A DNA stretch of 64,000 nucleotides from a bacterium. Its GTDB lineage: Bacteria > SZUA-182 > DTGQ01. Shown piece after piece: positions 5,867 to 60,126 of the stretch. Position 1 is the first letter of the stretch, and each line of letters begins with the position of its first letter. The notes beneath the pieces were generated by a model. That model was not told the origin of the DNA, did no database searches, and saw only the letters and a program-made list of their open reading frames with translations. Location of the stretch: NCBI GenBank assembly GCA_040755755.1, contig JBFLZW010000002.1, forward strand, positions 66,397-130,396, written 5' to 3'. Position numbers and translations under genes: made by a program.

Positions 5867-6729
5867 CTTTTTTCTCTCCCATCCCCTGATCCTGACAACG
5901 ACCGGGCTCCCAAAACAAGAATGGTCGTAAACAGATAAAGCACTATACCACAGGCAAAGATGGATTTAAATTCCAGACTTTCATAATCAGCGGCGAACAC
6001 CAGGGCGATGTGAGATGTCAAAGTTCTGGCTGAATCCAGAACCGAGCCGGGAATCTGAATTGCATTTCCGGCAAGCATCAAGGCAATAAGGGTATCGCCG
6101 AGAGATCGCCCCAGGGCAAGAATGAACCCGGTCAGGACACCCCTAAAGGCGCAGGGCAGGATGACATACAGAAATTTTTGCACTTCGGTTGCGCCTAAAG
6201 CGTCAGCAGCATCACGGTAGGATTTTGGCACATGATCAAAGCTATCGGTGAAAAACAGGATCATGGTCGGAGAAATAAGGACCGCCAGCATCAATGAAGC
6301 GGAGAGGATGCACATTCCTGAACCGCTCTGGAACATTTCCCTGATTCTGGGAACCAGAAGGAACACGCCTACAAACCCATACACAACCGTGGGTATGCCT
6401 GTCATAAGCTGAACCGCTTTTCGCAGGAACCGGCTGAATATTGCGGGACCAAGAACACTGATCAGTGCGGAACACCCCAAACTCAGCGGAAAAGCGAAGA
6501 CCAGGCTCAAACCGGCAATAGTCAGCGTGCCCGCGATCATGGGATAAATACCGTATGAACCGGAAGCGGGTTCCCACGGCTGAGCCAGGAGGTCAAAAAA
6601 ATGTCCCCCTCTGATGAGAGGGAGACCCAGGAACACCATGAATCCCAAAATGATAATAGTTAGAGAAACACTGACCACTGCCGAGAGGAGAAACAGTTTC
6701 TCGGCGATCTTTTCACGGATGGTAACCAT
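5863..6729 (-). CDS. pstC: Phosphate ABC transporter permease PstC
   Basis: Polytopic permease with 4-nt overlap onto pstA. Confidence 0.85.
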   Translation of the reverse strand: MVTIREKIAEKLFLLSAVVSVSLTIIILGFMVFLGLPLIRGGHFFDLLAQPWEPASGSYGIYPMIAGTLTIAGLSLVFAFPLSLGCSALISVLGPAIFSRFLRKAVQLMTGIPTVVYGFVGVFLLVPRIREMFQSGSGMCILSASLMLAVLISPTMILFFTDSFDHVPKSYRDAADALGATEVQKFLYVILPCAFRGVLTGFILALGRSLGDTLIALMLAGNAIQIPGSVLDSARTLTSHIALVFAADYESLEFKSIFACGIVLYLFTTILVLGARSLSGSGDGREKR

Positions 6730-7633: not shown

Positions 7634-8779
7634 TTAACTGTTATTTCTCATATAAGACTTCAGGACCTTGATGGCAATATCGATCTCCCGCTCGGTGTTA
7701 AAGTAGGAGAGGGAGAACCGGACCGTGCCGTGGGGAAAGGTGCCCAGGGTCTGGTGCGCCAGAGGCGCGCAGTGCAGGCCCGGCCTGGTGCATATTTCCC
7801 ACTCGCGGTCAAGGTAATGGGAAACCTCGGAAGCCATTGCCCCTTTCAGATTGAACGATACTACAGCCACCCGGTCGGCTTCGGGAGCATAAACCTGAGC
7901 TTCATCGATTTGCTTCAGCTTATCGAGCAGATAGTGTGTCAACTGATGCTCCCGGTCGATGATCTGCTCAAGCCCTTCGGCCAAAATGAATTCAATGCCG
8001 GCTGCAAGACCCGCGAATCCCGGAGTATTGACTGTCCCGGCCTCGAATTTATCCGGTGGAAAGTCCGGCTGGACGGTCTTTTCCGACAGGCTGCCGGTGC
8101 CGCCGCACAGAAAAGGCTCCAAGGTATCAGTATCCCTGATGATCAGAGCCCCGGTTCCCTGCGGTCCGAAAAGATGCTTATGCCCGGTTATGGCCAGAAA
8201 ATCGAATGGGGTCCTGGCCAGATCGATCTGTATTGCCCCGGCACCCTGGGCAGCATCGACCAGAAGCTTCACCCCCCTGGACCGGCTTACCTGGTATATC
8301 CCATCCAGGTCAAGCTTTGTGCCGCATACATTGGAAGCGGCGGTAACCGCAATGAGCCTGGTGTCAGCACTGATGGCTGCTTCGATCTTTTCCGCAGATA
8401 CCAGGCCGTTTCTGTCTCCCTCGACAATGGTGAGCCTGATCAGGCCCTTGTCTTTCAGGCGGTTGAGCGGCCTCAGAACGGAATTATGCTCCATCGAGGT
8501 GGCTATCGCCTCACCCCCTCCCGATGCCAGCGTCCCGTAAATAGCCAGATTCAATGCCTCGGTCGCATTTTTGGTCAGGATGATTTTTTCCGTTTCGGGA
8601 AAGTTGAAAAGCTCACCAATGGCCTCACGTGCCCGATAGATAATCTCGGCAGCCCTGATGGACAGAGAATGCGAAGACCTGCCCGGATTGGCATTGGCAT
8701 GCTTCAGACAATCGACCATAGCCTCGATCACTGATGGAGGCTTGGTGCCCGAAGTGGCTGCATGGTCAAAATAAATCAT
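7634..8779 (-). CDS. Cysteine desulfurase (aminotransferase class V, NifS/SufS-like; possible selenocysteine lyase)
   Basis: MIYFDHAATSGTKP, and the PLP-lysine context ITGHKHLFGPQGTGAL. Confidence 0.85.
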   Translation of the reverse strand: MIYFDHAATSGTKPPSVIEAMVDCLKHANANPGRSSHSLSIRAAEIIYRAREAIGELFNFPETEKIILTKNATEALNLAIYGTLASGGGEAIATSMEHNSVLRPLNRLKDKGLIRLTIVEGDRNGLVSAEKIEAAISADTRLIAVTAASNVCGTKLDLDGIYQVSRSRGVKLLVDAAQGAGAIQIDLARTPFDFLAITGHKHLFGPQGTGALIIRDTDTLEPFLCGGTGSLSEKTVQPDFPPDKFEAGTVNTPGFAGLAAGIEFILAEGLEQIIDREHQLTHYLLDKLKQIDEAQVYAPEADRVAVVSFNLKGAMASEVSHYLDREWEICTRPGLHCAPLAHQTLGTFPHGTVRFSLSYFNTEREIDIAIKVLKSYMRNNS

Positions 8780-8819
8780 GGCTGGTTCTCTGTTTGTGTT
8801 CTTTGCTGAAAGTGGGTAC

Positions 8820-9467
8820 CTAAATCGTAATCACTTTGGCTGATTTGAGCAAAGTTTCGGAAATATCGTACATGTTGGAAATCCTGCCAGCGCCAAGCTC
8901 CTGGGTGAGATTGAAGTAATTCAGGCAGGTTCCGCAGACCAGAAGCTCAATCCCTTTCTCTTCAAGCTCCTGCAGGCAGGACAGGGTCGGGGCTCCTTTA
9001 ACCGCCAGTTTCACTCCGCTGTTCATGAAACAGATGGTTTTCGGCTGGACGGACAGATCCCGGAGAGTAGCGACAAACGCATCGAGAAGGTTCATGCCCA
9101 GCTCATCACTGCCGGACCCGATCCGGTCCCTGGTGATAAAAACCGCCGTCCCGGTTCCGGAAGGATGATCGGTGCAGGAGTAATCTTCAGGCGCAAGCTC
9201 CACGGCTGACAGAGCGGTTTCCCGGCCAGCAGCCGGACTCTTTTGATCAGAGCCGCCCCTGGTATAAATGTGAAATTCGTTCCCTCGCTCTTCCACCCGG
9301 TCAATTTCAACCCCATTGCGCGTAAGAAACCGGGTGACATTCTCCTTCGAGGCCGCGCTGCTGACCATCACCACAAGAGGCTGACCAGCCGCCTGCTCGA
9401 AAGCTTCCTTTGTTTTCACTACTGGTTTGGGACAATCCAAACCCCGTGCATCAACCGTTATAGCCAT
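8820..9467 (-). CDS. YedF-like selenium/sulfur-metabolism protein (TusA-like N-domain with CPxP, fused to a DsrE/DsrF-like C-domain)
   Basis: N-terminal ARGLDCPKPVVKTKEAF (TusA CPxP motif). The C-terminal ~120 aa are DsrE-like. Confidence 0.7.
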   Translation of the reverse strand: MAITVDARGLDCPKPVVKTKEAFEQAAGQPLVVMVSSAASKENVTRFLTRNGVEIDRVEERGNEFHIYTRGGSDQKSPAAGRETALSAVELAPEDYSCTDHPSGTGTAVFITRDRIGSGSDELGMNLLDAFVATLRDLSVQPKTICFMNSGVKLAVKGAPTLSCLQELEEKGIELLVCGTCLNYFNLTQELGAGRISNMYDISETLLKSAKVITI

Positions 9468-9487
9468 GCGAAATCTCCTTATGTTCC

Positions 9488-9612
9488 TGCTGACTCCCAG
9501 CTCCTGACTTCTGACTACTCTTCACTGGCCACTGATCACTGGCCACTGGTCACTCTCTCCTGACTCCTGGCTTCTGGCTTCTGGCTCCCGACTCCTGACT
9601 CCTGACTCCTGC
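9488..9612. repeat. Heptamer repeat, family A copy (overlaps the 3' end of the activase ORF)
   Basis: ctcctgacttctgact...cactggccactgatcactggccactggtcact...ctcctgactcctggcttctggcttctggctcccgactcctgactcctgactcctg. Confidence 0.6.
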
Positions 9613-10370
9613 TTTAAAGCATACACTGCCGCACCAAGCGCGCCGATAATCTGGGGATTTTCCGGCACAATCAGGTTTCCTCCCAGCCGATCCTCCAGAA
9701 GTTTTACCAGACAGGGATTCAGGGCTCCGCCACCGGCAAAGAGTATTGGCCGCCTGCGGCCAAGCCGGTTGATCATGGTCTCTATCCGCTCGACTACGGA
9801 TTGATGAACCCCCAGGGCAATGCTTTGAGGGTCTTCGCCTTTAGCCAGCAGTGAAATCACTTCAGATTCAGCAAAAACCGTGCACATGCTGGTAACCTTG
9901 ATCAAACCGCCAGCCGTAAGAGCGAAAGCTCCAAACTGGCCGATGTCAATCTCGAACGAATGAGCCATGATCTCCAGAAACCGGCCGGTTCCGGCAGCAC
10001 AGCGGTCATTGATGCCGAAATTGTCAAAGGAACCATTCCCGTCCAGAGCAATGACCTTGGTGTCCTGCCCCCCGATATCGATCACCATCCGGACATCCGG
10101 GTACAGGTAATGCGCACCCAGGGCAAAGGCTTTGATCTCGGTTATGGTCTGATCAGCCAGGTCTTTCCGGGCAAGATGCCGTCCATATCCTGTGGCCACA
10201 ATGCCGGGCCGCCCGGCCGCTTTCATAATGCCTTCTTTTTCCAGGGCGCGGCGAAGCTTTTCCAGAGGATGAACACCGCCATCCATAACCTGAAAGGCAA
10301 CCAGGCCACTCTGGTTCAAAATTACATACTTGGCCGTCCGGGAACCAAGATCAATGCCTATGGAAGTCAT
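9522..10370 (-). CDS. BadF/BadG/BcrA/BcrD-type ATPase (CoA-substrate-specific enzyme activase, HgdC-like)
   Basis: MTSIGIDLGSRTAKYV and VIDIGGQDTKVI actin-fold ATPase motifs. The last ~30 codons are encoded by the family-A repeat. Confidence 0.8.
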   Translation of the reverse strand: MTSIGIDLGSRTAKYVILNQSGLVAFQVMDGGVHPLEKLRRALEKEGIMKAAGRPGIVATGYGRHLARKDLADQTITEIKAFALGAHYLYPDVRMVIDIGGQDTKVIALDGNGSFDNFGINDRCAAGTGRFLEIMAHSFEIDIGQFGAFALTAGGLIKVTSMCTVFAESEVISLLAKGEDPQSIALGVHQSVVERIETMINRLGRRRPILFAGGGALNPCLVKLLEDRLGGNLIVPENPQIIGALGAAVYALKQESGVRSREPEARSQESGESDQWPVISGQ

Positions 10371-10398
10371 ACACTGTGGCATTGTATCATATCTTATC

Positions 10399-12099: not shown

Positions 12100-12855
12100 T
12101 TATTTCCGTTCCGCGGCAGAATCGCCGGTGATGGATAGAACTACAGAGATAACCACCTCCGGTGTGGTTTTACTGTCTGTTTTAACAACTACCTGACCAC
12201 TCGTAAGGGAGCTGTTGTCCATTGCTTTTGCTGACACAATAATCGTCAGGGATTCGTTCGGTTTGAGACTTGCCGGCAGTTTGGTCTGCTCCGATGCTGC
12301 TTTGGCTGTAACAGCAGCGGCAGGAGTGGTTTCAATCGATAAAATCGACATGCTCTCCTGGCCGATATTCTTCAGCACAACCTCCTGAGTGGCATCCTGG
12401 TCCTTTGCTGCCCGGTTGAAATAAACATTGGCAGGAGTGGCTTCCAGATCGACTTTGACTAATGCTTCAATAGTTATTTGCGTAATTGGATTAACCGGGT
12501 CATTGGAATGGACATAGATGACTTTCTGTTGTTTCCCCTTGCGATGGGCGGAATTGAAAGTGACTTTAATCTGCCCGGTCTCACCCGGATTGATTGTTTT
12601 TTGAGAAAGCACAGCAGCGGTGCATCCGCAGGATGTCTTTACTTGTTCGATGTTCAGCGCCTGGTCTCCGGTATTCTGAAAGGTAAAAACATGGGTAACC
12701 GCTTTATTCTGGTAAATTTGCCCAAAATCGAACGAGGCATTGGAGAATGCGATACGGGGGGCGGCTGCGGCAGGTGCCGGACAGAATACGGACAACACTA
12801 TGGGAAAACTTATCAGGAGGACTGATAAGACTATTAAGGTTCTATTCTTTTTCAT
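12100..12855 (-). CDS. Secreted DUF1573-domain protein (two copies)
   Basis: Signal peptide, then the hallmark SCGCT motif (VKTSCGCTAA). Confidence 0.7.
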   Translation of the reverse strand: MKKNRTLIVLSVLLISFPIVLSVFCPAPAAAAPRIAFSNASFDFGQIYQNKAVTHVFTFQNTGDQALNIEQVKTSCGCTAAVLSQKTINPGETGQIKVTFNSAHRKGKQQKVIYVHSNDPVNPITQITIEALVKVDLEATPANVYFNRAAKDQDATQEVVLKNIGQESMSILSIETTPAAAVTAKAASEQTKLPASLKPNESLTIIVSAKAMDNSSLTSGQVVVKTDSKTTPEVVISVVLSITGDSAAERK

Positions 12856-14806
12856 GGTTTATCTCTCCTTTACTTTTTGGGCCTTTACTTTTCGGGCCTC
12901 TCAGTATCCGAATATCGCCGATCCGCATGGTGAAACCAATGGAATCGAAGTATTCCAGAATCTGAATGGTTTTTATTCGGCCCAGATCCATTACTCTATC
13001 ACGAAAATCGATAACGGTAAGACTCCCTTCCTTTTGGATATATGCCTTCACCATCTCCCTGAGCTCATGGAGAGGTTGGCTATGGATGATGGTATTTGGT
13101 GCGATTCGAATGACAACACTCTGATCTATGAGCATCTTTAATAATCTGTCCACCTCCTCCCCGGCGCAATTGATATTTTGATAAAGTTGACTTATGGGCA
13201 GCGGTCTGTAACCGCTGGATAGAAGCGCCCTTTCAATTTCGCTGATAACCTTCTTCTGCCATGAACTGAACGACAGGCTATGATTGGCAAGCCTGATAGC
13301 GGGACCGTCGATCGCTATTGTCTGCCTCATCTCAAGGTCCCTGAGCAGGTGATGGAAAAGCCGGCTGTCCATTTCCCCTGCTGTCTTTGACTTGAGCAGT
13401 TCTCTCCCCATACCTTTTTCAAGAGGGTTTTGGCTGTGAAAGTCTTTCAGGGCAGCGATAATTTTTTCTTTGATATGTGTTACCTGCCTGGTGGCAATAA
13501 AGAATTCCTCATCATCAAGACAGTAAATAACGCCTTCACTCTTTAACCGGGCAAGGATATCGACGAGTTCTGACCGAGTAAGGGCGGTCTTTCGTAACAG
13601 TTCACTCTGACTGCAAGGATGGAATTGGTATCGTGAAAGTGTCTCGATGATGAAGTCCCTGAATTTTCCCTGTTCCAGGTGCTCGATCCGAGTGACTCTG
13701 CTTTTACCTTCTGAGGCACTGTACCGCCTGGGGTAAGTATCCAGGATAACTCCTCCGCCAATGGTACGGGAAGGGCTGAGAGACCGGATAATATATCTGT
13801 CGAATACCCGAGGCGAAGCCTTTTCTTCCAGCCTGAACTGGACAACAGCCATTTCACCGGGTTGAATCTTATCCCTGTCCATGCAGATCACCCTGGCTAT
13901 AATCTCGGTAGTACCGGTATGGAGGCGTACCCTGGCTTTCGTGGACAAAGGAGATGCGTTCGATTCCAGGTATCGGAGTCTGGCATCCAGTATGCCGGTG
14001 GGCATGAGGGATTCCGGCGGGGCGATGACATCTCCTCTCTTGACCTGGGAGGTGGCGATACCGGCCAGGTTAAAGCCGACCCGCTGTCCGGCATGGGCTT
14101 CTTCGACCCACTGGTTATGCACCTGAAGTCCACGGATTTTGACTTTATAACCTTCGGGATATACCATTGCTATGGCTCCGGAACTTACAGCACCATTTAC
14201 CAACGTGCCGGTAGCTATTGTGCCGTAGCCTGCTACTGAAAAAACCCGATCCACGGGAAGCCGGAATTCGCCCCTCTCAAGTTTGGTTTTCTCAACCTTG
14301 CCGGTAAGCTCCATCAGGGCCGTCTTCAATTGATCGATTCCCTCTCCGGTCCGGCATGAGCAATCGATTACCGCTGCCTCCCGGAGGAAACTCGGCTCAA
14401 CAAGCCGGGCGATTTCCCCGTGAATCAACTCCAGCCAGTCCCTGTCCACCAGATCGATCTTGTTGACTGCCACAAGGCCGTGTCTGATTCCCAGCAGGGA
14501 AAGAATATCAAGATGCTCGCTGGTCTGGGGCATGGGGCCGTCATCGGCTGCAATAACCAGTATGGCCATATCGACGCCGGATATGCCTCTGAGCATATTC
14601 TTGATAAATTTTTCGTGACCCGGACAATCGACAATACTCACCACCTGTCCATTGGGAAGCCGGCAGGGTGCAAAACCTGATTCTATCGATATTCCCCGGA
14701 CCTTTTCCTCTTTCAGCCGATCGGTGTCTATACCAGTGATGGCCTTGGTCAGAGCGGTCTTGCCATGGTCAATATGCCCGGCCAAGCCTATAACCAGATT
14801 TTTCAA
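12842..14806 (-). CDS. selB: Selenocysteine-specific elongation factor SelB
   Basis: GTPase motifs GHIDHGKT, DCPGH, NKID, then winged-helix C-terminal domains in a 654-aa protein. TTG start. The C-terminal GPKSKGPKSKG comes from a short tandem repeat. Confidence 0.9.
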   Translation of the reverse strand: MKNLVIGLAGHIDHGKTALTKAITGIDTDRLKEEKVRGISIESGFAPCRLPNGQVVSIVDCPGHEKFIKNMLRGISGVDMAILVIAADDGPMPQTSEHLDILSLLGIRHGLVAVNKIDLVDRDWLELIHGEIARLVEPSFLREAAVIDCSCRTGEGIDQLKTALMELTGKVEKTKLERGEFRLPVDRVFSVAGYGTIATGTLVNGAVSSGAIAMVYPEGYKVKIRGLQVHNQWVEEAHAGQRVGFNLAGIATSQVKRGDVIAPPESLMPTGILDARLRYLESNASPLSTKARVRLHTGTTEIIARVICMDRDKIQPGEMAVVQFRLEEKASPRVFDRYIIRSLSPSRTIGGGVILDTYPRRYSASEGKSRVTRIEHLEQGKFRDFIIETLSRYQFHPCSQSELLRKTALTRSELVDILARLKSEGVIYCLDDEEFFIATRQVTHIKEKIIAALKDFHSQNPLEKGMGRELLKSKTAGEMDSRLFHHLLRDLEMRQTIAIDGPAIRLANHSLSFSSWQKKVISEIERALLSSGYRPLPISQLYQNINCAGEEVDRLLKMLIDQSVVIRIAPNTIIHSQPLHELREMVKAYIQKEGSLTVIDFRDRVMDLGRIKTIQILEYFDSIGFTMRIGDIRILRGPKSKGPKSKGEINHEKE

Positions 14807-14863: not shown

Positions 14864-14954
14864 AGAGGGTAAGGGGAATCGAACCTCCTACGGCCCTTGC
14901 ACAGGCCGACCAGCGGATTTGAAGTCCGTGGGGCACACCAGTACCATTACCCTC
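14864..14954 (-). tRNA. selC: tRNA-Sec (anticodon UCA)
   Basis: 91 nt. The 8-bp acceptor stem GAGGGTAA/TTACCCTC, the anticodon loop cUUCAaa, a long variable arm and the GGTTCGATTCC T-arm are all present. It sits immediately upstream of selB. Confidence 0.75.
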
Positions 14955-15534: not shown

Positions 15535-15567
15535 GAGCCCAAAAGCCGAAATTGCTGATAATTGCAT

Positions 15568-15630
15568 AAAGGCGAGGGAGTTCCGCCATAAACCGTTCCG
15601 GCCAGGGCCGGAGCTAATGACTCCTACGAG
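15568..15630 (+). promoter_or_regulatory. Fluoride riboswitch (crcB RNA motif)
   Basis: GGCGAGGGAGUUCCGCCAUAAAC...GGAGCUAAUGACUCCUAC. The B. cereus crcB aptamer is GGCGAUGGAGUUCGCCAUAAACGC...AGCUAAUGACUCCUAC, with the pseudoknot GGAGU/ACUCC. Confidence 0.85.
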
Positions 15631-15682
15631 CAGGTAAATATACCCTTGGGAGGAGTTATACAGTTGCTGGCAATCAAACTTT

Positions 15683-17059: not shown

Positions 17060-17145
17060 GCTCTCACTCCTCTGCTTTTCTCTGTATACCTCTGTGCCTC
17101 AGTGTCTCTGTGGTGTCCTTTGTTTTGTCTTGTCTTTGTCTTTAC
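17060..17145. repeat. Heptamer repeat, family B (CTCTGTG units plus GTGTCCTTTGT / TTTGT tail)
   Basis: ctcactcctctgcttttctctgtatacctctgtgcctcagtgtctctgtggtgtcctttgttttgtc. Near-identical copies at 47550-47625 and 30970-31032 (reverse complement). Confidence 0.65.
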
Positions 17146-19202
17146 AGCCTCCGGTACAGGGCCTCCGGGATATAGTAATTTTTGCGGTTCAGTATCACAC
17201 CCATGATCGGCACTGATCCGCTCAGCATTCCCTTGACTCTTCGGACGGATTCCATGCTGGTCCTGCCTGCATGGACCACCAGGATGAGGCCATCCAGGTG
17301 CGCTCCCAGCAGGATCGGATCGGAATAGGCGTTCAGGGCGCAGCAATCGAATAAGATATAGTCGAAGTGTTCTTTAAACTCCTGGATTGTTTTCTCCAGA
17401 GTGGCGGATTTCAGCAGATACAGAGGATTGATCGCCGGCTCCCCGGCGGTGATGATTGAAAGATTGGGAATTTTGCAGGACCGCAAAACATCCTTCCATC
17501 CGACCTTTTCCCGGATTACTTCCCCCAGCCCTTCTGATTTTGGCAGGCCGAAAAGGCTGTGGAGCTTCGGGCTCCGGAAGTTGGCATCCACCAGGAGCAC
17601 CCTGGCCTCTTCGGTCAGCGCAGAGGTAAGCGCGAAGTTGGCGGCCACGCTGGAAGTGCCCTCACCGGAGTTTGAGCTTGCAAACATCAATGCCTGGAGC
17701 CTGCTGCCCGGATTGGCCAGGTAAAGGTTATTCTTGATCCTCTGATACTCCTCGATGATTTTTGACGGCGGGGAGTAAATTTTCTGCTCCAGCCCCAAAA
17801 GACGGCGACTGCGCTGTATCAGGAAGCGGGGAAGAAACAGCAGCCACCCTTTCAGCCCTTCTCCCTGTTCCCTCCCCGAAGGGAGAAGGTTCAACGATTC
17901 AAACCGTTTGATATATTCCGGGGAAAGAGGTTTCGGTCTGGCTGGTTCTGCTGTCCTGAAATTTTCTGAAGGCTGATCATTCTGAAGAAGGGAGCCCTCC
18001 TTCTCCTGTCCAGGGGGGGTGCTCTGCTGCCTGGTGGCCTCGAAGGCTTTCTGCTGGCGGGCTGTCCTGCTGGCCGGCGGCAGTCCGCGGGGCGGACCCG
18101 GACTGACCATGAAGTCCTTTTCTCCTGCGGCATGTTCTCCCGGTTTTCTTTCCTGCTGCTGTTCCTGCCCATACTGCCCCAGAATTGCCCGCAGACCATC
18201 CCGCAGAAATCTTTGAGCTTCATCTTCCTCCCCTGCTGCTCCTGATGTCCGCCAGGGATACATCCTTTTGCCTGAATTGATAAGCCGGTATCGATAGTCT
18301 GGCATCTGAAACCAGTAAGCTCTCGCTTCTGCGGGTGAACCGGCAGCAGGCAGATGACTTCTGCTTCGCTGAACGAGGCGCGACTGGTCAGGTTGTATCT
18401 CCGGGCTTTCGAAGAGTGAGGAAAGATCCTGAATGATATCCTGATCGATAAGCTGCTGCTGGCGGCTGAACCCCAGGAGCAGTGCCTTGTCGCATATATT
18501 ATTGATGAGCCTTGGAATTCCCTGGGACCGATAGTAAATTTCCAGCAGCGCTTCATAGGAGAAAATATCCTGCTGGTCCCGTCCTGCGCTTTGCAGGCGG
18601 TATTCAACATAGTGGAAGCTTTCCGATTCGGTCAAAGGATCGATCCGGCAGCTCAAATCTACCCGCTGCTTGAGCTGCTGGAACGCGGGCTGGTTCAATT
18701 TGGTTTGCAGCTCCGGTTGCCCCGCCAGGATGATCGACAGGAGTTTCTGGTCAGCCGTCTCCAGATTGAGCAGCAGCCTGATTTGCTCCAGTTGCCGCCA
18801 ATCCAGGTTTTGTGCCTCATCGATAACCAGGACCACTGATATCCCCTGCTGGAGCTGGTGCAGCAGTCCCTCCCGAAGGAGCCCGAAGCTGTCTCTGGAT
18901 GCCCCTATGCCGGTAACTCCGAGCTTTTCCAGGAGATGGCCAATGAGTGCGTTGTTCCCTGACCCGGTATCGAGGAAAAAGATCATCTTAACCGCCTGGC
19001 CGATCTCCTTTTGAATGACCTGGAGAAGGGCTGTCTTCCCGGTACCTGCCTTGCCGGTAACCGTGATCAGCCCCTTCTTTTCCCGGATGGCATACAGAAG
19101 GAAAAGGAGTGTGCGCTGATGGCCGGAGCTCATGAAGAAGAAATCAGGATCAGGGGTATTGTTAAAAGGAGGACCGGTAAGCCCGTAGAATGTGGTGTAC
19201 AT
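17142..19202 (-). CDS. ExeA/GspA-like AAA+ ATPase fused to a BY-kinase/ParA-like C-terminal domain (EPS-locus ATPase / tyrosine autokinase)
   Basis: N-terminus VTGKAGTGKTALLQV...VLVIDEAQNLD (ExeA-type AAA). A Q/P-rich linker follows. The C-terminus is a CpsD/Wzc-like P-loop domain. Confidence 0.65.
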   Translation of the reverse strand: MYTTFYGLTGPPFNNTPDPDFFFMSSGHQRTLLFLLYAIREKKGLITVTGKAGTGKTALLQVIQKEIGQAVKMIFFLDTGSGNNALIGHLLEKLGVTGIGASRDSFGLLREGLLHQLQQGISVVLVIDEAQNLDWRQLEQIRLLLNLETADQKLLSIILAGQPELQTKLNQPAFQQLKQRVDLSCRIDPLTESESFHYVEYRLQSAGRDQQDIFSYEALLEIYYRSQGIPRLINNICDKALLLGFSRQQQLIDQDIIQDLSSLFESPEIQPDQSRLVQRSRSHLPAAGSPAEARAYWFQMPDYRYRLINSGKRMYPWRTSGAAGEEDEAQRFLRDGLRAILGQYGQEQQQERKPGEHAAGEKDFMVSPGPPRGLPPASRTARQQKAFEATRQQSTPPGQEKEGSLLQNDQPSENFRTAEPARPKPLSPEYIKRFESLNLLPSGREQGEGLKGWLLFLPRFLIQRSRRLLGLEQKIYSPPSKIIEEYQRIKNNLYLANPGSRLQALMFASSNSGEGTSSVAANFALTSALTEEARVLLVDANFRSPKLHSLFGLPKSEGLGEVIREKVGWKDVLRSCKIPNLSIITAGEPAINPLYLLKSATLEKTIQEFKEHFDYILFDCCALNAYSDPILLGAHLDGLILVVHAGRTSMESVRRVKGMLSGSVPIMGVILNRKNYYIPEALYRRL

Positions 19203-19220
19203 GCTCCATCTATACCTTTT

Positions 19221-20792
19221 CTACTCTTTAATATCCGGAATCGAACCCAGGACCGGCAGGTCAATCGACGCCTCAAGCTCCTCCGCTGACTCTACCGAGT
19301 GGTCAAGCATTTCCGATATGAGGGCAACGCCCAGGCTTGCGGTAATTCCCAATATAATGGCCATAAAAATTCTGAGGAGCTTGTTGGTTTTTCGCGGCAC
19401 CAGGGGAACCAGGGCAGGTTCGATGATACTGATATTGGCAAAGCGGGCTGCATCCATAGCCTCAGAAATACGGTTTTCTTCCACTTTCTTCCGATAGAGC
19501 TGATAGTTTTCTTCATCGATTTTGAGCTGGCGCTGCAGCTGATTGAATTCCAATTCGATCTTGTTGAGATCGGCCAGTTTCTGACTGCACAGGGCCAGGT
19601 TTTTGGCGAGATTGTCCTTCCTGGCCTCAAGGGCTTCCAGATCGACCTGTTTTTTCATGATCTCTTCAGTCAGCTTGAGGTAGATATCATTGAGCCCGAC
19701 ATGCACTTCGTATTGTACCGGACTGCTCAGCTCACACAACTGCGATTCCACTTCCTCAATCTCTTTTCGAATGTCGAGGATCTTGCGCTGATTGGCATCG
19801 GCATACATATTCATCATTTGGGTTTCACGGAGTTTGAGCTGGGAAAGCTGAGAGTTTAACTGATCTTTCAGGGGATCCTGCCGGGAAATCTCGGTCAGCA
19901 GAATTCTTTCCTTCTGGGCAGCCAGTTGTTCTTTCTGCTGCCGTATCTGCTCTCTGATCCCCCTGATGGTACTCTGGGTGGCCTCCAGGCTGCTTTCATA
20001 CTCCCCCTCCTGCCTGATAAGGATATCCCGCTGTAAGCTTAACTCAGCCAGGGAGAATTGTTTTTTAAATTCTTCCAGCCTCTGTTCCGATGCATCCAGC
20101 TTTTGCTTGAATTCAATAGCCTGCTCGGAAAAGAACTGATATGCCCCCGGGGTCTTATACACATTCAGGTGCTGATCGAGATAAAAGTCCAGCAGGGTAT
20201 TGACAACATCAGCGGATACCGCGGGTTCAGGGTCGGAAAAGCTGACCATAATTACGTTGGATTGGTTTACGATACTGACCGCAAGGTTTTTTTGGATCCG
20301 AAGCACCGCTGATTTAAAAGGTGACAGGGCCTCCTGAGGTGCAGGGGCAAGGGGGAGTATATAATACAGAAGATTTTTCACCTCATGAAAAATCCTGGTC
20401 AGGGTCTGGCGTATGCCGGAGCGGGGGGGAGTTTTTCCTTTCCCGGTTTTGCCTGGCGATTTCGTGAGGTCAACACCCAGCTTTGCTACCACCTTCTCGG
20501 CCAGCACTCTGCTGCGAAGAATCTCGATTTCCGAATTGATATCTTCCAGGCGGGTAATATCCATAATCCGCTCCGGAGTAGTCATCACCGCTGTGGTGGG
20601 AATAGCGTTTTCCCTCCCCTCTTTGACCAGGATTTTTGCTGTACTTTCATAGACCGGCACCTGGTTGACGATGATGAAGACAGCCAGTGATGTCACCGCC
20701 ACGAAGGTCAGCAGGATTTTCCCTTTGTGCTTAAAGAAAATCGCGAGTAAATCCCGCAATGACCTGTTGATAGTCTTCTGCTCATCCATCAT
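19221..20792 (-). CDS. Polysaccharide chain-length determinant protein (Wzz/GumC-like)
   Basis: N-terminal TM helix, long coiled-coil periplasmic region, C-terminal TM helix (FMAIILGITASLGVALI). Confidence 0.7.
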   Translation of the reverse strand: MMDEQKTINRSLRDLLAIFFKHKGKILLTFVAVTSLAVFIIVNQVPVYESTAKILVKEGRENAIPTTAVMTTPERIMDITRLEDINSEIEILRSRVLAEKVVAKLGVDLTKSPGKTGKGKTPPRSGIRQTLTRIFHEVKNLLYYILPLAPAPQEALSPFKSAVLRIQKNLAVSIVNQSNVIMVSFSDPEPAVSADVVNTLLDFYLDQHLNVYKTPGAYQFFSEQAIEFKQKLDASEQRLEEFKKQFSLAELSLQRDILIRQEGEYESSLEATQSTIRGIREQIRQQKEQLAAQKERILLTEISRQDPLKDQLNSQLSQLKLRETQMMNMYADANQRKILDIRKEIEEVESQLCELSSPVQYEVHVGLNDIYLKLTEEIMKKQVDLEALEARKDNLAKNLALCSQKLADLNKIELEFNQLQRQLKIDEENYQLYRKKVEENRISEAMDAARFANISIIEPALVPLVPRKTNKLLRIFMAIILGITASLGVALISEMLDHSVESAEELEASIDLPVLGSIPDIKE

Positions 20793-20835
20793 TGCTTCTT
20801 CCCTTCAGAATCCCTGCGCCTGACGCTCCGCGCCA

Positions 20836-21582
20836 TCATTTCCCCCGGATCAGGTCAGTAAATACCTCACTGGGGACAATCTGGTTCATATATTGATCGA
20901 CAAACTGGTCTACCTTGCCGATCAGCGTCTTGGGCACATAAACTACATCGTTCGGCTGGAGCTGAAGGTCATTTTTCACCAGCCGCTTGCTGAGAAACAG
21001 TTTCATAAGATCGACTTTGATTACCCGAAAGCCCGGCTGTCCGATATTTCTCAGGACCAGCACACTGCGCATTTCAGCGGTATTCTTAAACCCGCCTGCC
21101 GCAAAGATGGCCTGGAGCGCTGTCTTGCCGCTGCCAAGATTGACCATCTGCGGAGTGGATACCTCTCCGCCAACGTAAACCTGATGGGAATAACTTGCGA
21201 CCGCGACCGTAACTTCAGGATCACGGAGGATTTTTGCATATTTCTCCCGAATGATCTGCTGGGCCTTTGAGGATGAAAGCCCTTTCACCTTGACATCTCC
21301 AATGAGCTGCAGGGTGATCAGTCCATCGGGCCGGATAACCGTTTTGGTGTTGAGCTCCGGATGGTAATACAGGCTGATCGCCAGCTCATCCCCGGTCTGA
21401 AGGAGGTATTCGGTTTCCGACGGCTCCCCCTGGTAATTCGAGCGCATGACCTGCATCTCACCGATGTCGTCATAGGCGTAGTGCGGGCTGCATCCCAACA
21501 GGCTATGGCATACCAGGATAATGCCAGGGACCATCAGCCACCACCACCAGCCCGATCGACGGTTCCCAGTCATCTTGTGCAT
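20836..21582 (-). CDS. Polysaccharide export outer-membrane lipoprotein (Wza/EpsE-like)
   Basis: Lipobox LLGCS, polysaccharide-export and SLBB domain pattern (PDGLITLQLIGDVKV...NDVVYVP). Start taken at the internal Met. Confidence 0.7.
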   Translation of the reverse strand: MHKMTGNRRSGWWWWLMVPGIILVCHSLLGCSPHYAYDDIGEMQVMRSNYQGEPSETEYLLQTGDELAISLYYHPELNTKTVIRPDGLITLQLIGDVKVKGLSSSKAQQIIREKYAKILRDPEVTVAVASYSHQVYVGGEVSTPQMVNLGSGKTALQAIFAAGGFKNTAEMRSVLVLRNIGQPGFRVIKVDLMKLFLSKRLVKNDLQLQPNDVVYVPKTLIGKVDQFVDQYMNQIVPSEVFTDLIRGK

Positions 21583-22049
21583 CCCTGCATCCCCATTCGA
21601 TAAGCTGTCTTTTGGATGTCCGCCGGTGGAGGTCGTTTTTGGATTTTTCTGGTCAAGTTTTTTCCACCTGCCATGATAATTGGTCATTTATCGACCACGG
21701 TCTTCACCGCTGAATCACTCTGGTTCGAAGACGCTACCCGGAATAGCGTTCAAGAATTCCTGGACCTCAGGATGGATAAGTAAGGCAGAGACCGGATATT
21801 TTCTGTACCGGGCTATGCCTTTTTTACGCAAAATTCGTACCAAAATTTGGTTCTGAGCCCTCTGCAGCCCATAAAGTACCGATAGAAGGGCTGGCCCGAA
21901 AATCAGCCTTGAGCTACCCAAACAGAGAAAAAGAAACCACATCCGCAAGGGTTACAGGAAGGACTTGGTCGCGTATATTCCCCACGCTCTTGTCTGAATT
22001 TCAACAGGTTGTTGAGATTCAGACGCTATAGTATTGAGTTATCCTCGTG

Positions 22050-22078
22050 TTGACAAGGGAGTCTAATGGTTGTAAAAT
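22050..22078 (+). promoter_or_regulatory. Sigma70-type promoter upstream of dnaJ (TTGACA-17-TAAAAT)
   Basis: ttgacaagggagtctaatggttgtaaaat. Confidence 0.5.
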
Positions 22079-22229: not shown

Positions 22230-24713
22230 ATGATCAAGAAGGATTACTATGAAATCTTGGAAGTCCCTCGGAATGCTGCCCCGGAAGAGATAAAGAAAGC
22301 CTATCGGAAAAAGGCGCTCCAATATCATCCGGACCGCAATCCGGGCAACCCGGAGGCGGAGGAAAAATTCAAAGAGGCTTCCGAAGCCTACGAGGTTCTG
22401 AGCGATGCCCAGAAGAGGAGCCTCTACGATCAATTCGGCCATGCAGGCCTGCAGAATTCGGGCTTTACCGGCTTTAACTTCGATGATATATTCGGGAGTG
22501 ACCTTTTCAGCAGTTTCGGTGATATTTTCGGAGATTTCTTCGGGTTCAGAACCGGAAGGTCCGGCCGTCCGCGTCCGGCACGGGGAGCGGACCTTGGGCA
22601 GGAGGTAGCGATCTCTTTTCGTGAGGCGGCCTTTGGACTGGAAACCGATATTGAAGTGGAAAGACACGAAACCTGCCCGACCTGCCAGGGGAGCGGAACA
22701 AAACCCGGCACGTCACCACAGGTCTGCCGCATCTGCGGCGGACGGGGGCAGGTGCAGCGCACCCAGGGCTTTTTAAGCATTACCACCGTTTGTCCGCAGT
22801 GCCGGGGCACCGGTCAGGTGATAGAATCCCCCTGTCCGCAGTGCCGGGCAATGGGCAAAGTACCCCAGAAGAGAAAACTGCATGTCAAGATCCCCGCTGG
22901 TGTAGATAATGGCTCCCAGCTCCGGCTGCTGGGAGAAGGAGCGCTCGGAGAGCGGGGAGGTCCCCCCGGTGATCTTTACATCACCATTCAGGTCAAAGAG
23001 GATGATTTTTTCTCCCGCAAGGATGACGATGTGCTGTGCACTGTTCCCATATCCTTTGCCCAGGCTGCCCTGGGAGCGGAAATCGAGGTTCCGACACTCT
23101 CCGGGCCGCATAAACTGGAAATCCCCCGGGGAACGCAGAGCGGTACCGTGATGCGGATTAAAAAAGCGGGCTTTCCCAATGTCTACGGCAAGGGAAAGGG
23201 AGACCAACTGGTAACGATCGTCGTGGAGGTCCCCACCAGTCTTACGCCCCGGCAGGAAGAGCTGTTGCGCAAATTCGACCAGGCAGGGGATGAAAAAAAG
23301 CCGCATCAGGAGGAGAAACAGCACAAGAAGGGTTTTTTCCATTTTCTGGGATTGTTGTCGCTGGTTTTTTTTCTGCTCCTGACTTCGACTTCCCCGGCCG
23401 GGGCATCGGCGGATGCTGCCCGTGAGGGTCGCAAGACGCCAATTGTCAAAGTGGTCGAGAAGGTGAGCCCGGCGGTAGTCAATATCAGTACCGAACGGAT
23501 TGTGCGGGAGAGAGTCAATCCTTTTGGCAATCCCTTCTTCGATAATTTTTTCGATAATTTTTTCGATACCTTTCCTCCGAGGAGCTACAAGGAGCAGAGC
23601 CTGGGATCGGGAGTTATCATTGATCCCAAAGGACACATTCTGACCAATGAGCACGTTATCCTCAAGGCCTCCAAAATCAAAATCACCCTGGCCGACAACC
23701 GCGAGTTCGAGGGGAAACTGGTCGGTTCTGATCCCCGCTCGGATCTGGCCGTCGTGAAAATAGATTCTCCGAAAAACCTGCCCTATATCACTACCGGACA
23801 ATCCGAGGATCTGATGGTGGGTGAAACGGTAGTGGCCATCGGAAACCCTTTCGGCCTCTCTCATACCGTAACCACCGGGGTGATCAGCGCTGTCAACCGC
23901 ACGGTAAAGGTTAACGAAGACCTTGTCTACCACGGTTTCATTCAGACAGACGCTTCCATCAATCCCGGAAACAGTGGAGGGCCGCTGATGAATATCACCG
24001 GGGAGTTGATCGGCATTAATACTGCCATTTACCAGAAAGCCGAGGGGATAGGTTTCGCTATTCCCATCGACCGGGCCAAAAGAATTATTGCCGACCTGAT
24101 CACCTATGGCAAGGTCCGCAAGGTCTGGCTGGGGATTCGTGTTCAAAATCTTACCAGGGACCTGGCAGGCTATTTCAACCTCAGTCATCCGGCGGCAGGG
24201 GTCATTGTCACCCGCATCATCGACGGCAGTCCGGCTGAGAAGGCAGGGCTTCAGCGGGGAGACATCATCCAGAAAATCAATAGCGATCAGATCGCTTCCC
24301 AGGAGGTTTATTCCTCGGTTGTGGCCGGATTTACCGCGGACAGTGAGATGAAAATCTCGGTGTTGCGGGAAGGAAAGCCCCTGACCATCGACATTAAACC
24401 TGCCCGGCTGACCCAGGAGATTGCTGAAAAAATTGCCAAAGACCTGCTTGGTTTGACCGTCAAGGGGTTTAGCTCTTCATTCGGGGGAATGGGCGAGCGG
24501 GACTCCGGCGTGGCTGTAAGCTCTGTCCGGGGCAGGAGCCCCGTTGCCAAGGCAGGCATCCAAAAGGGAGACATCATCCGCCGGATCAATGATAAGGAGA
24601 TACAAAACCTGAAAGATTTTCAGGAAGTTATCATTGCCAATGCCGATCGGGACAGCCTGCTCCTTCTGGTCCAAAGAGGACCTTATATTTATCCGGTCAC
24701 GATCGGTTTCTAA
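22230..24713 (+). CDS. dnaJ: Single 827-aa ORF fusing full-length DnaJ (J domain, G/F region, 4x CxxCxGxG zinc finger, C-terminal domain) in frame, through a hydrophobic segment, to a DegP/HtrA serine protease with two PDZ domains
   Basis: J domain: DYYEILEV...HPDRN. Four zinc-finger CxxCxGxG motifs. DnaJ part ends near residue 350. Hydrophobic stretch [29 protein letters not shown]. HtrA catalytic triad (TNEHVI, DLAVVKI, GNSGGPL) and two PDZ domains. No stop codon between the two parts. Confidence 0.7.
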
Positions 24714-24972: not shown

Positions 24973-26034
24973 ATGAAGAAGTGCAATTCCCTGGGTCGGC
25001 TGCTGGTAATTTCAACCGCTTATACTGTGCTCTTATTCCTGCTGACTATGACTATCTCGCCTGGCAACTGCCAGGTACCGTCTTCCTACCCATATACCAC
25101 GTATCCTTATACAACGTATCCGACCGGCACTACGAGCGGATATCCCTACACGGTGTATCCGAGCCAATCTGCTACATCTTACTCTTACTCACCGCTGACA
25201 GGTTACACTGTTAATCCCTATACTCAGGCGACTGCCGCGGTCCCTTATGGGACCACATACGGGACTACCTATCCGCAGTATGGTACTTCCTATACTACGG
25301 TGCCATCCTACGGCACTTCGGCCTATGGCCTGCCTGTATATGGTACTTCCGGATATAATATCCTGGTGATCGCTGCTCCTTCGAATTCTTATACCAATCC
25401 CTTATCCTCGTATCCTGCCATAAGTACCTATCCAGGCACATATCCTTTTGATGGCAGAATAGCGGCCATTTATCTGCCGACGCAGAGCACCTATCCTGCG
25501 TATCCGACATACCCTGCGTATCCTGCGTATCCGACGACGCCTGCGTATTCGACCTATCCGACCTATCCTGCGTATCCGACGACGCCTGCGTATTCGACAT
25601 ACCCGACCTATCCGACATACCCGACATATTCTACGTATCCGACCTATCCGACATACCCGACGACACAGACGTATCCGACCACACCTACCTATTCAACGAG
25701 TGTATCGGGCGGGTGGAGCGGTTCCTGGGTAAGTAACGGAACCCAGGGAGGCGCTTCTCTTACCCTGACTCAGAGCGGAACCACGCTGACTGGCACGATA
25801 AACCTTACATCTTCGAATGGTCAGGCCAAATTGAACGCCAATGTCAATGGAAGCATGAGCGGTACTACCCTGCAGCTTTGGGCAACTATTAATGGAGGTA
25901 CGGATATCTTCAACCTGAGTATCATCGGAAACATTAACGGAACCGTGCTGAACGGCAATTACCGGATTACCAACAACAGCAGTATCGAGCTGGAATCCGG
26001 GACGCTTAACCTGGTCAAATCATCGCTCTATTAA
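24973..26034 (+). CDS. Secreted Tyr/Thr/Pro-rich repeat protein (TYP(A/T)YP tandem repeats) with a C-terminal Thr/Asn/Gly-rich beta-like domain
   Basis: Signal peptide, then PAYPTYPAYPAYPTTPAYSTYPTYP... encoded by tandem DNA repeats at 25490-25680. RBS ggtaaggagatcaag. Confidence 0.7.
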   Translation: MKKCNSLGRLLVISTAYTVLLFLLTMTISPGNCQVPSSYPYTTYPYTTYPTGTTSGYPYTVYPSQSATSYSYSPLTGYTVNPYTQATAAVPYGTTYGTTYPQYGTSYTTVPSYGTSAYGLPVYGTSGYNILVIAAPSNSYTNPLSSYPAISTYPGTYPFDGRIAAIYLPTQSTYPAYPTYPAYPAYPTTPAYSTYPTYPAYPTTPAYSTYPTYPTYPTYSTYPTYPTYPTTQTYPTTPTYSTSVSGGWSGSWVSNGTQGGASLTLTQSGTTLTGTINLTSSNGQAKLNANVNGSMSGTTLQLWATINGGTDIFNLSIIGNINGTVLNGNYRITNNSSIELESGTLNLVKSSLY

Positions 26035-53100: not shown

Positions 53101-53242
53101 CCGGTTTGGTCTCACCATCGGTAGCTCGAACCAATGAGGGGTGAATCCAGCAGATTATCGCCCAGCATGATACCAAAATCCAGAACCTTACCGATAAGCT
53201 TTTCTGTGCGGGGCACAGCCCCTGGTGTGTTATCCGCTTCAA
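50132..53242 (-). CDS. Very large TPR-repeat protein (1036 aa)
   Basis: About 20 TPR units (YY/LG/A patterns) after an N-terminal signal-anchor. Confidence 0.8.
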   Translation of the reverse strand: MKRITHQGLCPAQKSLSVRFWILVSCWAIICWIHPSLVRATDGETKPGITLPEVVVTGDYQLKFKEDKTSLQMPAMSALGVKDVPSEAAKAGIAPVIGAEEKMKPAIKPKFGCLFGMPCGGAFSRTVLRDNGYYEYGKHEYSRGNYRQAASAFEKLIKKYPNSPYKGMAAYWAGESYFNLKEMDKAISSYQRVIARSVQSQYADYAFYSLGWIYAQRGEFQASSQHLQSVINLFGLSPLREKAYYLLAADLYHLGKYRDSARNYQQLIREFPQSPFLSQCIFWQAECFFNLNEFETSEKLYTEFLSKYPSHSLAESALYGLAWISFKTSRFQDSLDRLKVLREKYPNSSLISQVLFRQGRCYFMLEDYPQAQKAYEQLLADYPTSPVYNQALFGVAWSLFKTGEYQAASGKLKTLLDRQGIEEPLRISGIFMLAETCYNQKQYAEAATWYNKLTPPAASNEYTETAYFRSGTCSILLEQYARAIVDLQKLLNEYPGTSLADQAIYWIGESYFRQGNYQAAIRSYSQLLDEYPEGKWSAPAQHGIGWAYYRLEDWTQAAREFSRMATSFPDSQLVPDALFRQAECLHNLKEYAKSQKCLEELMARFPTSSLIDTAAFRYALTYSRMGETKEAIRQFRRMLTKFPQSDLRDQTQYYIGLTFFQDSKFQEAMKEFQILLRDYPKSRFIEQAQIRIADCLYNLGQYAPALSRYQELSAKLGNTSVGIEAEYGTILCYDRLGMIDQYLDTSKNFIEKYKDNPISEQLQFQIGETLFTRGNLPEAIQNYQTLVQKFPKGKLLDEAMYKVASIHLQAGEHERAIEEFIKLIEMSPQTTRAMDIHLGLARAYFALDQFQKTIAECDAVLKFEKPEVLLHEALYYRGASNEKLGNQAEARENYLRLAEKFPEGPFFHEVQFKLGQAFFSEAHYEDAARAFSDSAKSPNKEMRLNSLFHLGEAKTQLRNYSQAIADYLKIPYLYPDEEEWKIKVYYRVGELYERQGNSEQAKSAYQKVVKGARDAELQKEAIRRISVLSASKKKKK

Positions 53243-53307
53243 GGGTTACTCATCCTCCCTTCACAAAGACAATGACTGTCTGAAGAAAACAAGCAAGCGA
53301 TATAAGT

Positions 53308-54804: not shown

Positions 54805-55060
54805 AAGCAGTATACCTGGTACTGTGCCGGGCACTCCATTGGGTGATAACCTGGGCATAATAACTTTAAGTTTATGTATTTCCATCGGTAAAGAACTATG
54901 CTCCTCAGTTTAACATACTTTGCTGAGAAATTCAATTTTATCAGGCAGCAGTGATAGAACCGACATTCCGCTCTGATACAATTCTCAACTACTGGGGAAA
55001 GAAGATAAGATAAAATGGGCGAGAGCAATTAAGAACCGCTCTAACATGAGAGAGCCCGCT

Positions 55061-56782: not shown

Positions 56783-56810
56783 AGGTTCTCCTTTGCGTGG
56801 ATACAGGGGG

Positions 56811-58019: not shown

Positions 58020-58032
58020 TCTTTGGTTCTCC

Positions 58033-58686
58033 TTACATGATCTGGCCATCGCGGATGCGGATCTGGCGCTGGCATTTTTGGGCAATTTCCTGTTCATGGG
58101 TGACAATGATAATTGTCCGCCCCTCCTTGTTGAGGTACTGCAAAACCGCCATGATCTCTTCACTGGACTTGCTGTCCAGATTACCCGTGGGCTCATCGGC
58201 CAGAATTATGGACGGATTGGTTACCAGAGCCCGGGCAATGGCCACCCGCTGCCGCTGTCCGCCGGAGAGCTGGTTCGGCTCATGGTGCATGCGGGAAGTC
58301 AGGCCGACCTGCTCAAGTGCCCTGGCAGCTTCCATCTTGGCCGCCGGATGTCCGGAATAGAGGAGCGGAAGCTCCACGTTTTCCAGGGCGCTCATGCGGG
58401 GAAGAAGATTAAAGGTTTGAAAAACAAAGCCTATTTCGCGGTTTCGGATTTTAGCCAGCTCATCCTTCCCAAACCTTGATACATCCTTGCCATTGAGAAA
58501 ATAGCGGCCGGAGTCAGGGTGGTCCAGGCAGCCGAGAATATGCATGAGCGTGGATTTCCCGCTCCCCGAAGCACCCACGATGGCCAGCATTTCGGATTTT
58601 TCCACCGTGAGAGAAACCCTGTTGAGGGCCAGGATTTCCTGCTCGCCCATCCGGTATTTTTTGGTAACTTCATCAACCACCAGCAT
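58033..58686 (-). CDS. ABC transporter ATP-binding protein (MacB/LolD-like)
   Basis: [29 protein letters not shown]. Confidence 0.9.
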
Positions 58687-58706
58687 GAAAGACCTCGCTT
58701 ACTATC

Positions 58707-60059: not shown

Positions 60060-60126
60060 AGCTTGACCTCCCATACAGCCCAAAATTATTCAGGAAAGCA
60101 TCTTATTAGTGAGAAATCATGGCATT

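Follow-up and report, generated by a model that had tools for sequence, protein, structure and literature searches.

Cytoplasmic protein quality control by DnaJ and DnaK and periplasmic quality control by the HtrA/DegP proteases are usually treated apart, as systems that are linked through stress regulons alone. The 64-kb stretch of bacterial DNA analysed here, which we call the window, holds a gene that joins the two: a single open reading frame (ORF) on the forward strand, dnaJ-htrA, encodes a full class A DnaJ, a hydrophobic helix and a Do/DegQ-type HtrA protease. In its first half the fusion is like other class A DnaJ proteins (that of E. coli; chain 6jzb_A), with a J domain carrying the HPD motif, a Gly/Phe-rich region, four CxxCxGxG motifs, two C-terminal beta domains and a dimerisation helix; canonical DnaJ, however, is a soluble protein of ~375 amino acids (aa), whereas the tail of the fused form runs on into a membrane segment and a second protein.

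The second half is like DegP and DegQ (4a8a, 3pv2, 1ky9), with which it shares a trypsin-like domain, the His-Asp-Ser triad and two PDZ domains. DegP and DegQ carry a cleavable signal peptide at their N-terminus, while the export signal of the fusion lies inside the chain (aa 369-394), after the 368 aa that make up DnaJ. Two-PDZ proteases of the DegP/DegQ type assemble into soluble cages of 6 to 24 subunits. In DegS and the HtrAs of Gram-positive bacteria and mycobacteria, an N-terminal transmembrane (TM) segment instead keeps the protease on the outer side of the cytoplasmic membrane; DegS has one PDZ domain and few cytoplasmic residues, and we know of none among these membrane-anchored HtrAs that has a chaperone as its cytoplasmic part. 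The fusion differs from DegS on both counts, having two PDZ domains and what would be a full chaperone on the cytoplasmic side.

J-proteins are also found at the inner membrane. In E. coli, DjlA (with an N-terminal TM segment) and the tail-anchored DjlB and DjlC bring Hsp70 there, and a review names, as bacterial membrane J-proteins, these class C proteins and no other class (PMC8215388). Their likeness to the fusion is one of localisation only: the J domain alone is shared, DjlB and DjlC pair with HscC, and none of the three is fused to an exported protein, whereas the fusion keeps the full client-binding domains of class A.

The fused gene and its conservation

An earlier note, made from the letters of this DNA alone, had described a full-length DnaJ in frame with a complete HtrA protease bearing two PDZ domains, and this description is borne out by Pfam and NCBIfam models as well as by the HPD, CxxCxGxG and His-Asp-Ser motifs. 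Among the NCBIfam models, the DnaJ half matches TIGR02349 (DnaJ_bact) at 444 bits against a cutoff of 377 and PRK10767 at 477 against 338, the latter over aa 1-370 and 362 of the 374 model positions; its closest solved chain is the full-length DnaJ 6jzb_A, aligned over aa 5-371. The protease half matches the Do-family model TIGR02037 at 445 bits against a cutoff of 416 (aa 405-818) and the Pfam family Trypsin_2 (PF13365) at aa 459-596 with 1.3e-34, PF00089 matching as well, and its closest solved chains are DegQ and peptidase Do (8kic_D, 4a8a_A); the DegS model TIGR02038 stays below its cutoff, at 251 against 423. In an AlphaFold2 (AF2) model, the mean predicted local distance difference test score (pLDDT) is 75 and the protease domain is modelled with good confidence, while aa 81-115 within the Gly/Phe-rich region have low pLDDT and appear disordered. 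By its sequence the DnaJ half is thus of class A, but it is doubtful that the fused form is soluble, because its C-terminus leads into a membrane segment.

An open frame of 827 codons would be expected by chance with a probability of roughly 1e-17, taken as ~(61/64)^827. The protein is present at NCBI as MEW6378292.1, where its product name is just 'molecular chaperone DnaJ'; MEW5801025.1, MGA1876012.1 and MCL6583005.1 carry the same name and nothing else (818-846 aa for the four records), a label that conceals the protease half.

The identical 827-aa protein is encoded on contigs of two independent Logan assemblies, which come from different sequencing runs. When 5.8 billion protein clusters were searched, 10 clusters at 90% identity were found to contain the whole fusion; their proteins are 815-857 aa long and 67-100% identical to the query at 100% query coverage, and together they hold ~23 member sequences from NCBI, ENA, JGI and Logan, all of them full length bar one fragment. 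No unfused close relative was found in the same search, the next matches being stand-alone HtrA proteins at no more than 58% identity and stand-alone DnaJ proteins at no more than 57%. The earlier note had regarded the presence of the fusion in related genomes as a touchstone, and every close relative that we found does carry it.

Across the 10 fusion proteins, the residues on which both activities depend are invariant: the HPD motif (H33, P34 and D35; 22326-22334), the eight zinc-finger cysteines (C149, C152, C166, C169, C188, C191, C202 and C205) and the catalytic triad of H475 (23652-23654), D505 (23742-23744) and S582 (23973-23975). At the very end of the DnaJ part, K366 and G368 are also invariant, and K367 is nearly so.

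For seven members of the fusion clade (the window and the loci designated L083, L085, L086, L087, L088 and L089) the DNA could be compared directly. The frame is unbroken in all seven, and synonymous sites are saturated, with a proportion of synonymous differences (pS) of 0.64-0.92. The ratio of nonsynonymous to synonymous differences (pN/pS) is 0.02-0.44 over the two halves; it does not exceed 0.28 in either the DnaJ domains or the protease core, is 0.02-0.23 in the protease domain, and within the halves it is highest in the PDZ region. The linker (aa 369-398) is the least constrained part of the protein, with a pN/pS of 0.6-0.86, and the distance between the KKGFF and RKTP anchors that flank it takes at least four different lengths, from 32 to 65 codons, always in frame. 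Both alternative frames contain stops in the junction window of 7/7 loci. From (61/64)^n we estimate that ~45 unconstrained codons would stay open by chance in seven saturated lineages with a probability of roughly 1e-6 to 1e-7. A stop or frameshift hidden between dnaJ and htrA, which the earlier note had named as the finding that would undo the fusion, is seen neither in the independent assemblies nor in any of these loci.

The fusion is thus genuine and selectively maintained. Because the HPD motif, the eight cysteines and the triad are all invariant, we conclude that both halves are functional and that the joint between them is kept by selection.

The features of the gene and its immediate surroundings are collected in Table 1. 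The DnaJ and HtrA halves have no paralogues elsewhere in the 64-kb window, and no CIRCE heat-shock operator was found in it. An antisense ORF of 471 aa (22773-24188, reverse strand) lies wholly within dnaJ-htrA; we assume it to be a non-coding shadow opposite a strongly conserved sense gene.

Table 1. Positions of the fused gene, its parts and adjoining features; nucleotide positions are those of the window unless a locus is named.
Feature	Residues (aa)	Position (nt)	Strand	Remarks
Sigma-70-like promoter candidate		22050-22078	+	TTGACA-17-TAAAAT, 11/12 matches, ~150 nt before the start; consensus match only
Fused dnaJ-htrA ORF	1-827	22230-24713	+	ATG start, 827 aa, 0 internal stops
J domain	5-67	22242-22430	+	PF00226, 1.5e-28 (Pfam)
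Gly/Phe-rich region	~68-120	22431-22589	+	read from the translation
DnaJ C-terminal substrate-binding domains (DnaJ_C)	125-335	22602-23234	+	PF01556, 3.1e-49
DnaJ zinc-finger domain (DnaJ_CXXCXGXG)	149-207	22674-22850	+	PF00684, 2.9e-14; four CxxCxGxG motifs
DnaJ dimerisation helix and charged flexible tail ending in KKG	helix 340-352	23247-23333	+	AF2
A_AAA_AAG heptamer (dnaX slippery sequence)		23294-23300	+	in frame, inside the A7 run 23293-23299
Hydrophobic segment	369-385	23334-23384	+	17 residues; putative internal signal or signal-anchor sequence
c-region-like stretch STSPAGASA	386-394	23385-23411	+	Pro at -6, Ala-Ser-Ala at -3 to -1
Predicted signal peptidase I site	A394/D395	23411/23412	+	from the c-region pattern
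HtrA trypsin-like protease domain	401-626	23430-24107	+	triad H475, D505, S582
PDZ domain 1	634-723	24129-24398	+	PF13180, PF00595
PDZ domain 2	763-816	24516-24677	+	PF17820, PF13180
Gene directly 3' of the fusion		24973-26034	+	306-393 aa across the clade, no Pfam match
Same downstream gene in relatives		L083 12830-14011; L085 12758-13882; L087 4072-5079; L088 3197-4258; L089 3002-3922

The junction and the fate of the fused chain

The two halves meet in a junction peptide of 29 residues (aa 366-394, nt 23325-23411), which includes the hydrophobic segment. In the window protein the best Kyte-Doolittle 19-mer of this segment reaches 2.03, and the next best in the protein 1.24; across the fusion proteins the values are 2.0-2.6 in the segment and at most 1.7 elsewhere. 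Rough, approximate sums on the Hessa scale give about -0.2 for the window and from -3.2 to +0.4 for the 10 proteins, against +5.3 or more for all other 19-mers. The segment is accordingly predicted to be the sole membrane-competent stretch in all 10 fusion proteins. In the AF2 model, pLDDT falls below 50 at aa 353-370, a helix follows at 370-385 and a low-confidence linker at 388-398, and then the HtrA fold begins. The helix is directly preceded by KK or KKK in the fusion proteins, and a spacer of 10-42 aa separates its end from the first conserved residue of HtrA. A small-x-small triplet follows the helix in 10/10 representatives (ASA, ANA, ACA, VRA, VRA, SRA, VNG, ASA, VRA and SQA), with a Pro 4-7 residues before the site in 9/10, the triplet coming three to five residues after the Pro; a Pro combined with small residues at -3 and -1 is typical of a signal peptidase I c-region.

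We cautiously favour a pathway in which the fusion is made as one chain and is then cut by signal peptidase I, to give a tail-anchored DnaJ and a free periplasmic HtrA. The ribosome would make a single chain of 827 aa, of which the DnaJ part would fold and stay in the cytoplasm. On emerging, the hydrophobic segment would act as an internal N-in/C-out signal that engages the signal recognition particle (SRP) and the Sec machinery, and the latter would thread the HtrA part, ~430 aa long, into the periplasm. Signal peptidase I would most likely cut after A392-S393-A394, before D395, and so release a soluble DegQ-like HtrA in a 1:1 ratio with a DnaJ that is tail-anchored in the inner membrane and could recruit DnaK to the membrane surface. 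We infer the topology, the Sec export, the cleavage and their functional consequences from sequence features. If the chain is cleaved in this way, a full class A DnaJ would be anchored to the membrane; to our knowledge, the known bacterial membrane J-proteins are all minimal ones of class C.

Cleavage is suggested by three observations: the Pro and the small residues at -3 and -1 have been kept in a part of the protein that otherwise shows the weakest constraint; with its two PDZ domains the protease belongs to the DegP/DegQ kind, whose members act as soluble cages; and the ancestral orthologue was apparently a secreted enzyme. Other observations weigh against it. With FFH counted, the hydrophobic stretch is 16-23 residues long, which is long for a cleaved signal peptide and would fit a permanent anchor. 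A small-x-small triplet is moreover expected by chance in Ala/Ser-rich linkers at an estimated ~0.3-0.6 per sequence, and the 10 sequences are phylogenetically related, so that the occurrence of the motif in all of them is suggestive and not decisive. Taken together, we consider cleavage no less likely than a permanent tether.

The chain might, on the other hand, stay uncut, as a bitopic inner-membrane protein with DnaJ (a dimer) in the cytoplasm, HtrA (a trimer) in the periplasm and one TM helix between them, a possibility which we take seriously without preferring it. Its model would be the anchoring of DegS, although the DegS structures that were matched to the fusion lack the anchor. The length of the segment (16-23 residues) and its approximate insertion free energy (-3.2 to +0.4) would suit a TM helix, AF2 models the segment as a helix, the Lys residues before it fit an N-in orientation, and the spacer of 10-42 aa is comparable with what is generally known of the DegS tether; whatever shows the fusion to be real and conserved holds for a tethered form just as well. 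The Pro and the small residues at -3 and -1, however, suit a cleaved signal peptide and would be needless in a permanent anchor; the soluble cages generally known for two-PDZ proteases are hard to reconcile with a tether, and the orthologues of the sister lineages are ordinary secreted HtrAs. An uncleaved fusion would be a trans-membrane chaperone-protease, and would hence connect the Hsp70 system physically with a protease of the envelope.

A stronger version of this, in which the uncut protein spans the inner membrane and serves the organism as its principal or sole class A DnaJ, seems unlikely to us. If it were true, DnaK could be recruited in the cytoplasm while HtrA acts in the ATP-free periplasm, the two working on both ends of one client. 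We speculate that such clients could be precursors jammed in the Sec translocon, or misassembled proteins of the membrane or of the neighbouring exopolysaccharide export system. An intact chain could also relay information on envelope stress across the membrane, and the mismatch between a dimeric DnaJ and a trimeric HtrA could drive higher-order membrane arrays.

It is very improbable, by comparison, that the one ORF yields two proteins without proteolysis, either by internal initiation of HtrA or by a -1 frameshift that ends DnaJ early in the manner of dnaX tau/gamma. The window ORF has no in-frame ATG between codons 310 and 528, in agreement with the earlier note, which had seen no ATG from which htrA might start independently. 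Near the junction, canonical in-frame starts are limited to the TTG codons 346, 375 and 376. TTG 346 lies in the DnaJ C-terminal region with a weak AGGA alone upstream, while TTG 375 and 376, which could be cited in support of internal initiation, sit inside the hydrophobic segment with no Shine-Dalgarno-like motif upstream, and a signal peptide starting there would have no n-region. An AGGAGG at ~23310 could likewise be cited, but no start codon lies at a usable distance from it. Over the seven loci, no in-frame ATG, GTG or TTG with a Shine-Dalgarno motif is conserved before the hydrophobic segment, and L083 and L086 lack canonical starts altogether from the DnaJ C-terminal domain to the end of that segment.

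As for frameshifting, a -1 shift at the heptamer of Table 1 would add a tail of 41 aa before a stop. The heptamer is present in the window and in L089; L085 and L087 have none, and elsewhere it occurs at other positions. A dnaX-type programmed frameshift was thus rejected, since the heptamer is not conserved in position, and the heptamer is probably a by-product of Lys codons; frameshifting alone could in any case not yield an exported HtrA. Since neither an internal start nor a frameshift site is conserved, the HtrA half would have no route to the periplasm other than within the fusion.

Origin from an overlapping gene pair and rarity of the fusion

The closest stand-alone HtrAs, P0013 (57% identical) and P0011 (56%), are encoded in two sister loci, L090 (GCA_049472395.1, a mangrove/mudflat sediment metagenome-assembled genome, MAG) and L091 (GCA_016934595.1). 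In both, a class A dnaJ of 368-370 aa lies directly upstream of htrA, in the same order and orientation as in the fusion, and the two halves encoded there are the closest stand-alone relatives of those of the fusion (DnaJ ~60% identical, HtrA ~58%). Unlike in the fusion, the sister DnaJ ends at a stop and is soluble, and the sister HtrA begins at a start codon of its own, with a signal peptide at the N-terminus; the position of this signal peptide is that of the hydrophobic segment of the fusion. The sister signal peptides (MEYSFLIILFFIIISPPSLSA/EAP…RKTPVVEVVEKV) align with the hydrophobic segment and RKTPVVKVVEKV, and the DnaJ tail of L091, RKGVFNLFS followed by the stop, resembles the KKGFFHLLG of the fusion. 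The hydrophobic segment is thus the former signal peptide of HtrA.

The sister genes overlap in different frames, by 19 nt in L090 and 50 nt in L091, which suggests that in the ancestor, too, the two ORFs overlapped by a few codons and were translationally coupled. In L090 the overlap (5990-6020) is an A-rich homopolymer tract, GGAAAAAAGAAAAAATGG, where a slip of 1 nt would merge the frames; this shows how easily a fusion of this kind could arise. Neighbour-joining trees built from the DnaJ and the HtrA half agree: in both, the fusion clade is monophyletic, and its sisters are the L090 and L091 lineages. Because of these trees, and because the sister genes are separate and overlapping, we conclude that the fusion arose in a single event, by an indel at the dnaJ stop that merged two overlapping frames.

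Homopolymer runs flank the junction in the window as well: an A7 run, which lies five bases downstream of the 23288-23294 given in the earlier note, and T6 and T8 runs nearby. That an error in the A7 or T8 run removed the dnaJ stop, so that the fusion would be an artefact of sequencing or assembly or a recent pseudogenising mutation, might be argued from these runs and from the equally A-rich overlap of L090, where indels are mechanistically easy, yet it is hardly credible in view of the same continuous frame in independent assemblies, the ~23 diverged sequences from several projects with saturated synonymous sites, strong purifying selection on both halves and only in-frame indels, and the lack of any unfused close relative in our search. 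The lost stop codon that the earlier note had put forward as an alternative thus fails as a sequencing error, but it fits well as an evolutionary event, given that the sister genes overlap in different frames.

With a profile made from the fusion we also searched, exhaustively and with HMMER, all 1.84 billion representatives of ~15 billion proteins. One cluster matched both halves, at 1629 bits; the remaining top-150 matches covered one half only, at no more than 540 bits. Three long matches were inspected and rejected: P0174, which matches in several stretches, is a tandem protease and not a DnaJ-HtrA, and P0038 and P0073, two DnaJ-side matches from the first protein search, turned out to be a duplicated DnaJ and an oddly extended one. 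Among the matches listed in a scan of GTDB genomes, none is a member of the fusion clade; among those listed in a scan of JGI metagenomes, there are only stand-alone DnaJ loci and one locus, L124, in which htrA is followed by dnaJ.

In 160 other loci, dnaJ followed by htrA was seen in three Gammaproteobacteria only, as separate cbpA-like and degQ genes. These loci had first appeared as 'full-length' GTDB matches (L005 at 8001-10397, L036 at 8001-10373 and L062 at 8001-10289) and were rejected as fusions; each has a class B cbpA-like gene with degQ 18-90 nt later, and the gammaproteobacterial MAGs with such a pair include Competibacteraceae and Methylophaga. The arrangement is like that of the fusion in that a J-protein gene immediately precedes, on the same strand, a gene of the HtrA family, but the ORFs are separate and the J-protein lacks the zinc finger. 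In L005 and L062 both halves are just 31-41% identical to the window protein, and because of this low identity we believe that the adjacency probably arose independently.

A literature search found no paper describing a DnaJ-HtrA or DnaJ-DegP fusion, and the main text of a survey of ~280,000 J-domain proteins mentions no trypsin, PDZ or protease partners (PMC10410713). The fusion is thus a new architecture made from two known families, and it is confined to one uncultured lineage. Two genes that were first translationally coupled, then became one chain and were kept so through a long divergence would make a 'Rosetta-stone' argument for joint need, that is, both activities may be required together, in fixed proportion, at the inner membrane. 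The fusion may also offer a natural example of an N-terminal signal peptide that has turned into an internal export signal behind a folded domain of 40 kDa, which would be useful for studies of Sec/SRP targeting.

Neighbouring genes and host

Within the clade the fusion gene keeps its neighbours, a divergent exopolysaccharide cluster upstream and the gene of a clade-specific, putatively secreted repeat protein downstream. The exopolysaccharide genes (17142-21687, reverse strand) encode a Poly_export/Wza-like protein, a Wzz/GNVR chain-length determinant and an AAA ATPase; the window, L083, L085 and L086 share their synteny with the fusion, L087 has at least the Poly_export gene, and the sister loci are without them. 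The membrane J-protein DjlA of E. coli affects capsule (Rcs) signalling, and the exopolysaccharide neighbourhood of the fusion may or may not be meaningful. In the window copy, the product of the downstream gene begins with a stretch like a signal peptide, contains long Tyr/Thr/Pro ('TYPTYP') repeats and ends in a beta-rich part with Gly, Asn and Thr; the gene is absent behind the unfused pairs of L090 and L091. The protease might have this repeat protein as its client or partner, or the two might be unrelated.

The window encodes TolC, a MacAB-type efflux system and tetratricopeptide repeat (TPR) proteins resembling YbgF and BamD; because of the TolC and BamD/YbgF-like genes, we take the host, an uncultured bacterium of sediment, to be a diderm with a periplasm. 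Two of the TPR proteins are very large (50132-54885 and 55061-60083, both on the reverse strand), have repeated YbgF/CpoB- and BamD-like units (1036 and 525 aa) and adjoin genes for a TolC-like protein, a MacB-like permease and a membrane-fusion protein.

The polynucleotide phosphorylase of the window finds its clade at 78-100% identity, followed by a gap down to 64% or less, where the entries bear the labels 'bacterium', Nitrospirota or Thermodesulfobacteriota. JBLIRT, one of the MAGs that carry the fusion, is part of a catalogue from mangrove and mudflat sediments, and the accession of the sister JBLIRR is within the range of that study (PMC13280167).

The organism uses selenocysteine, as judged from a tRNA-Sec gene (14865-14954, reverse strand; RF01852, 58.9 bits) that adjoins selB (12842-14806, reverse strand; TIGR00475, 349 bits). 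A fluoride riboswitch (crcB motif) was found at 15562-15633 on the forward strand (RF01734, 47.6 bits).

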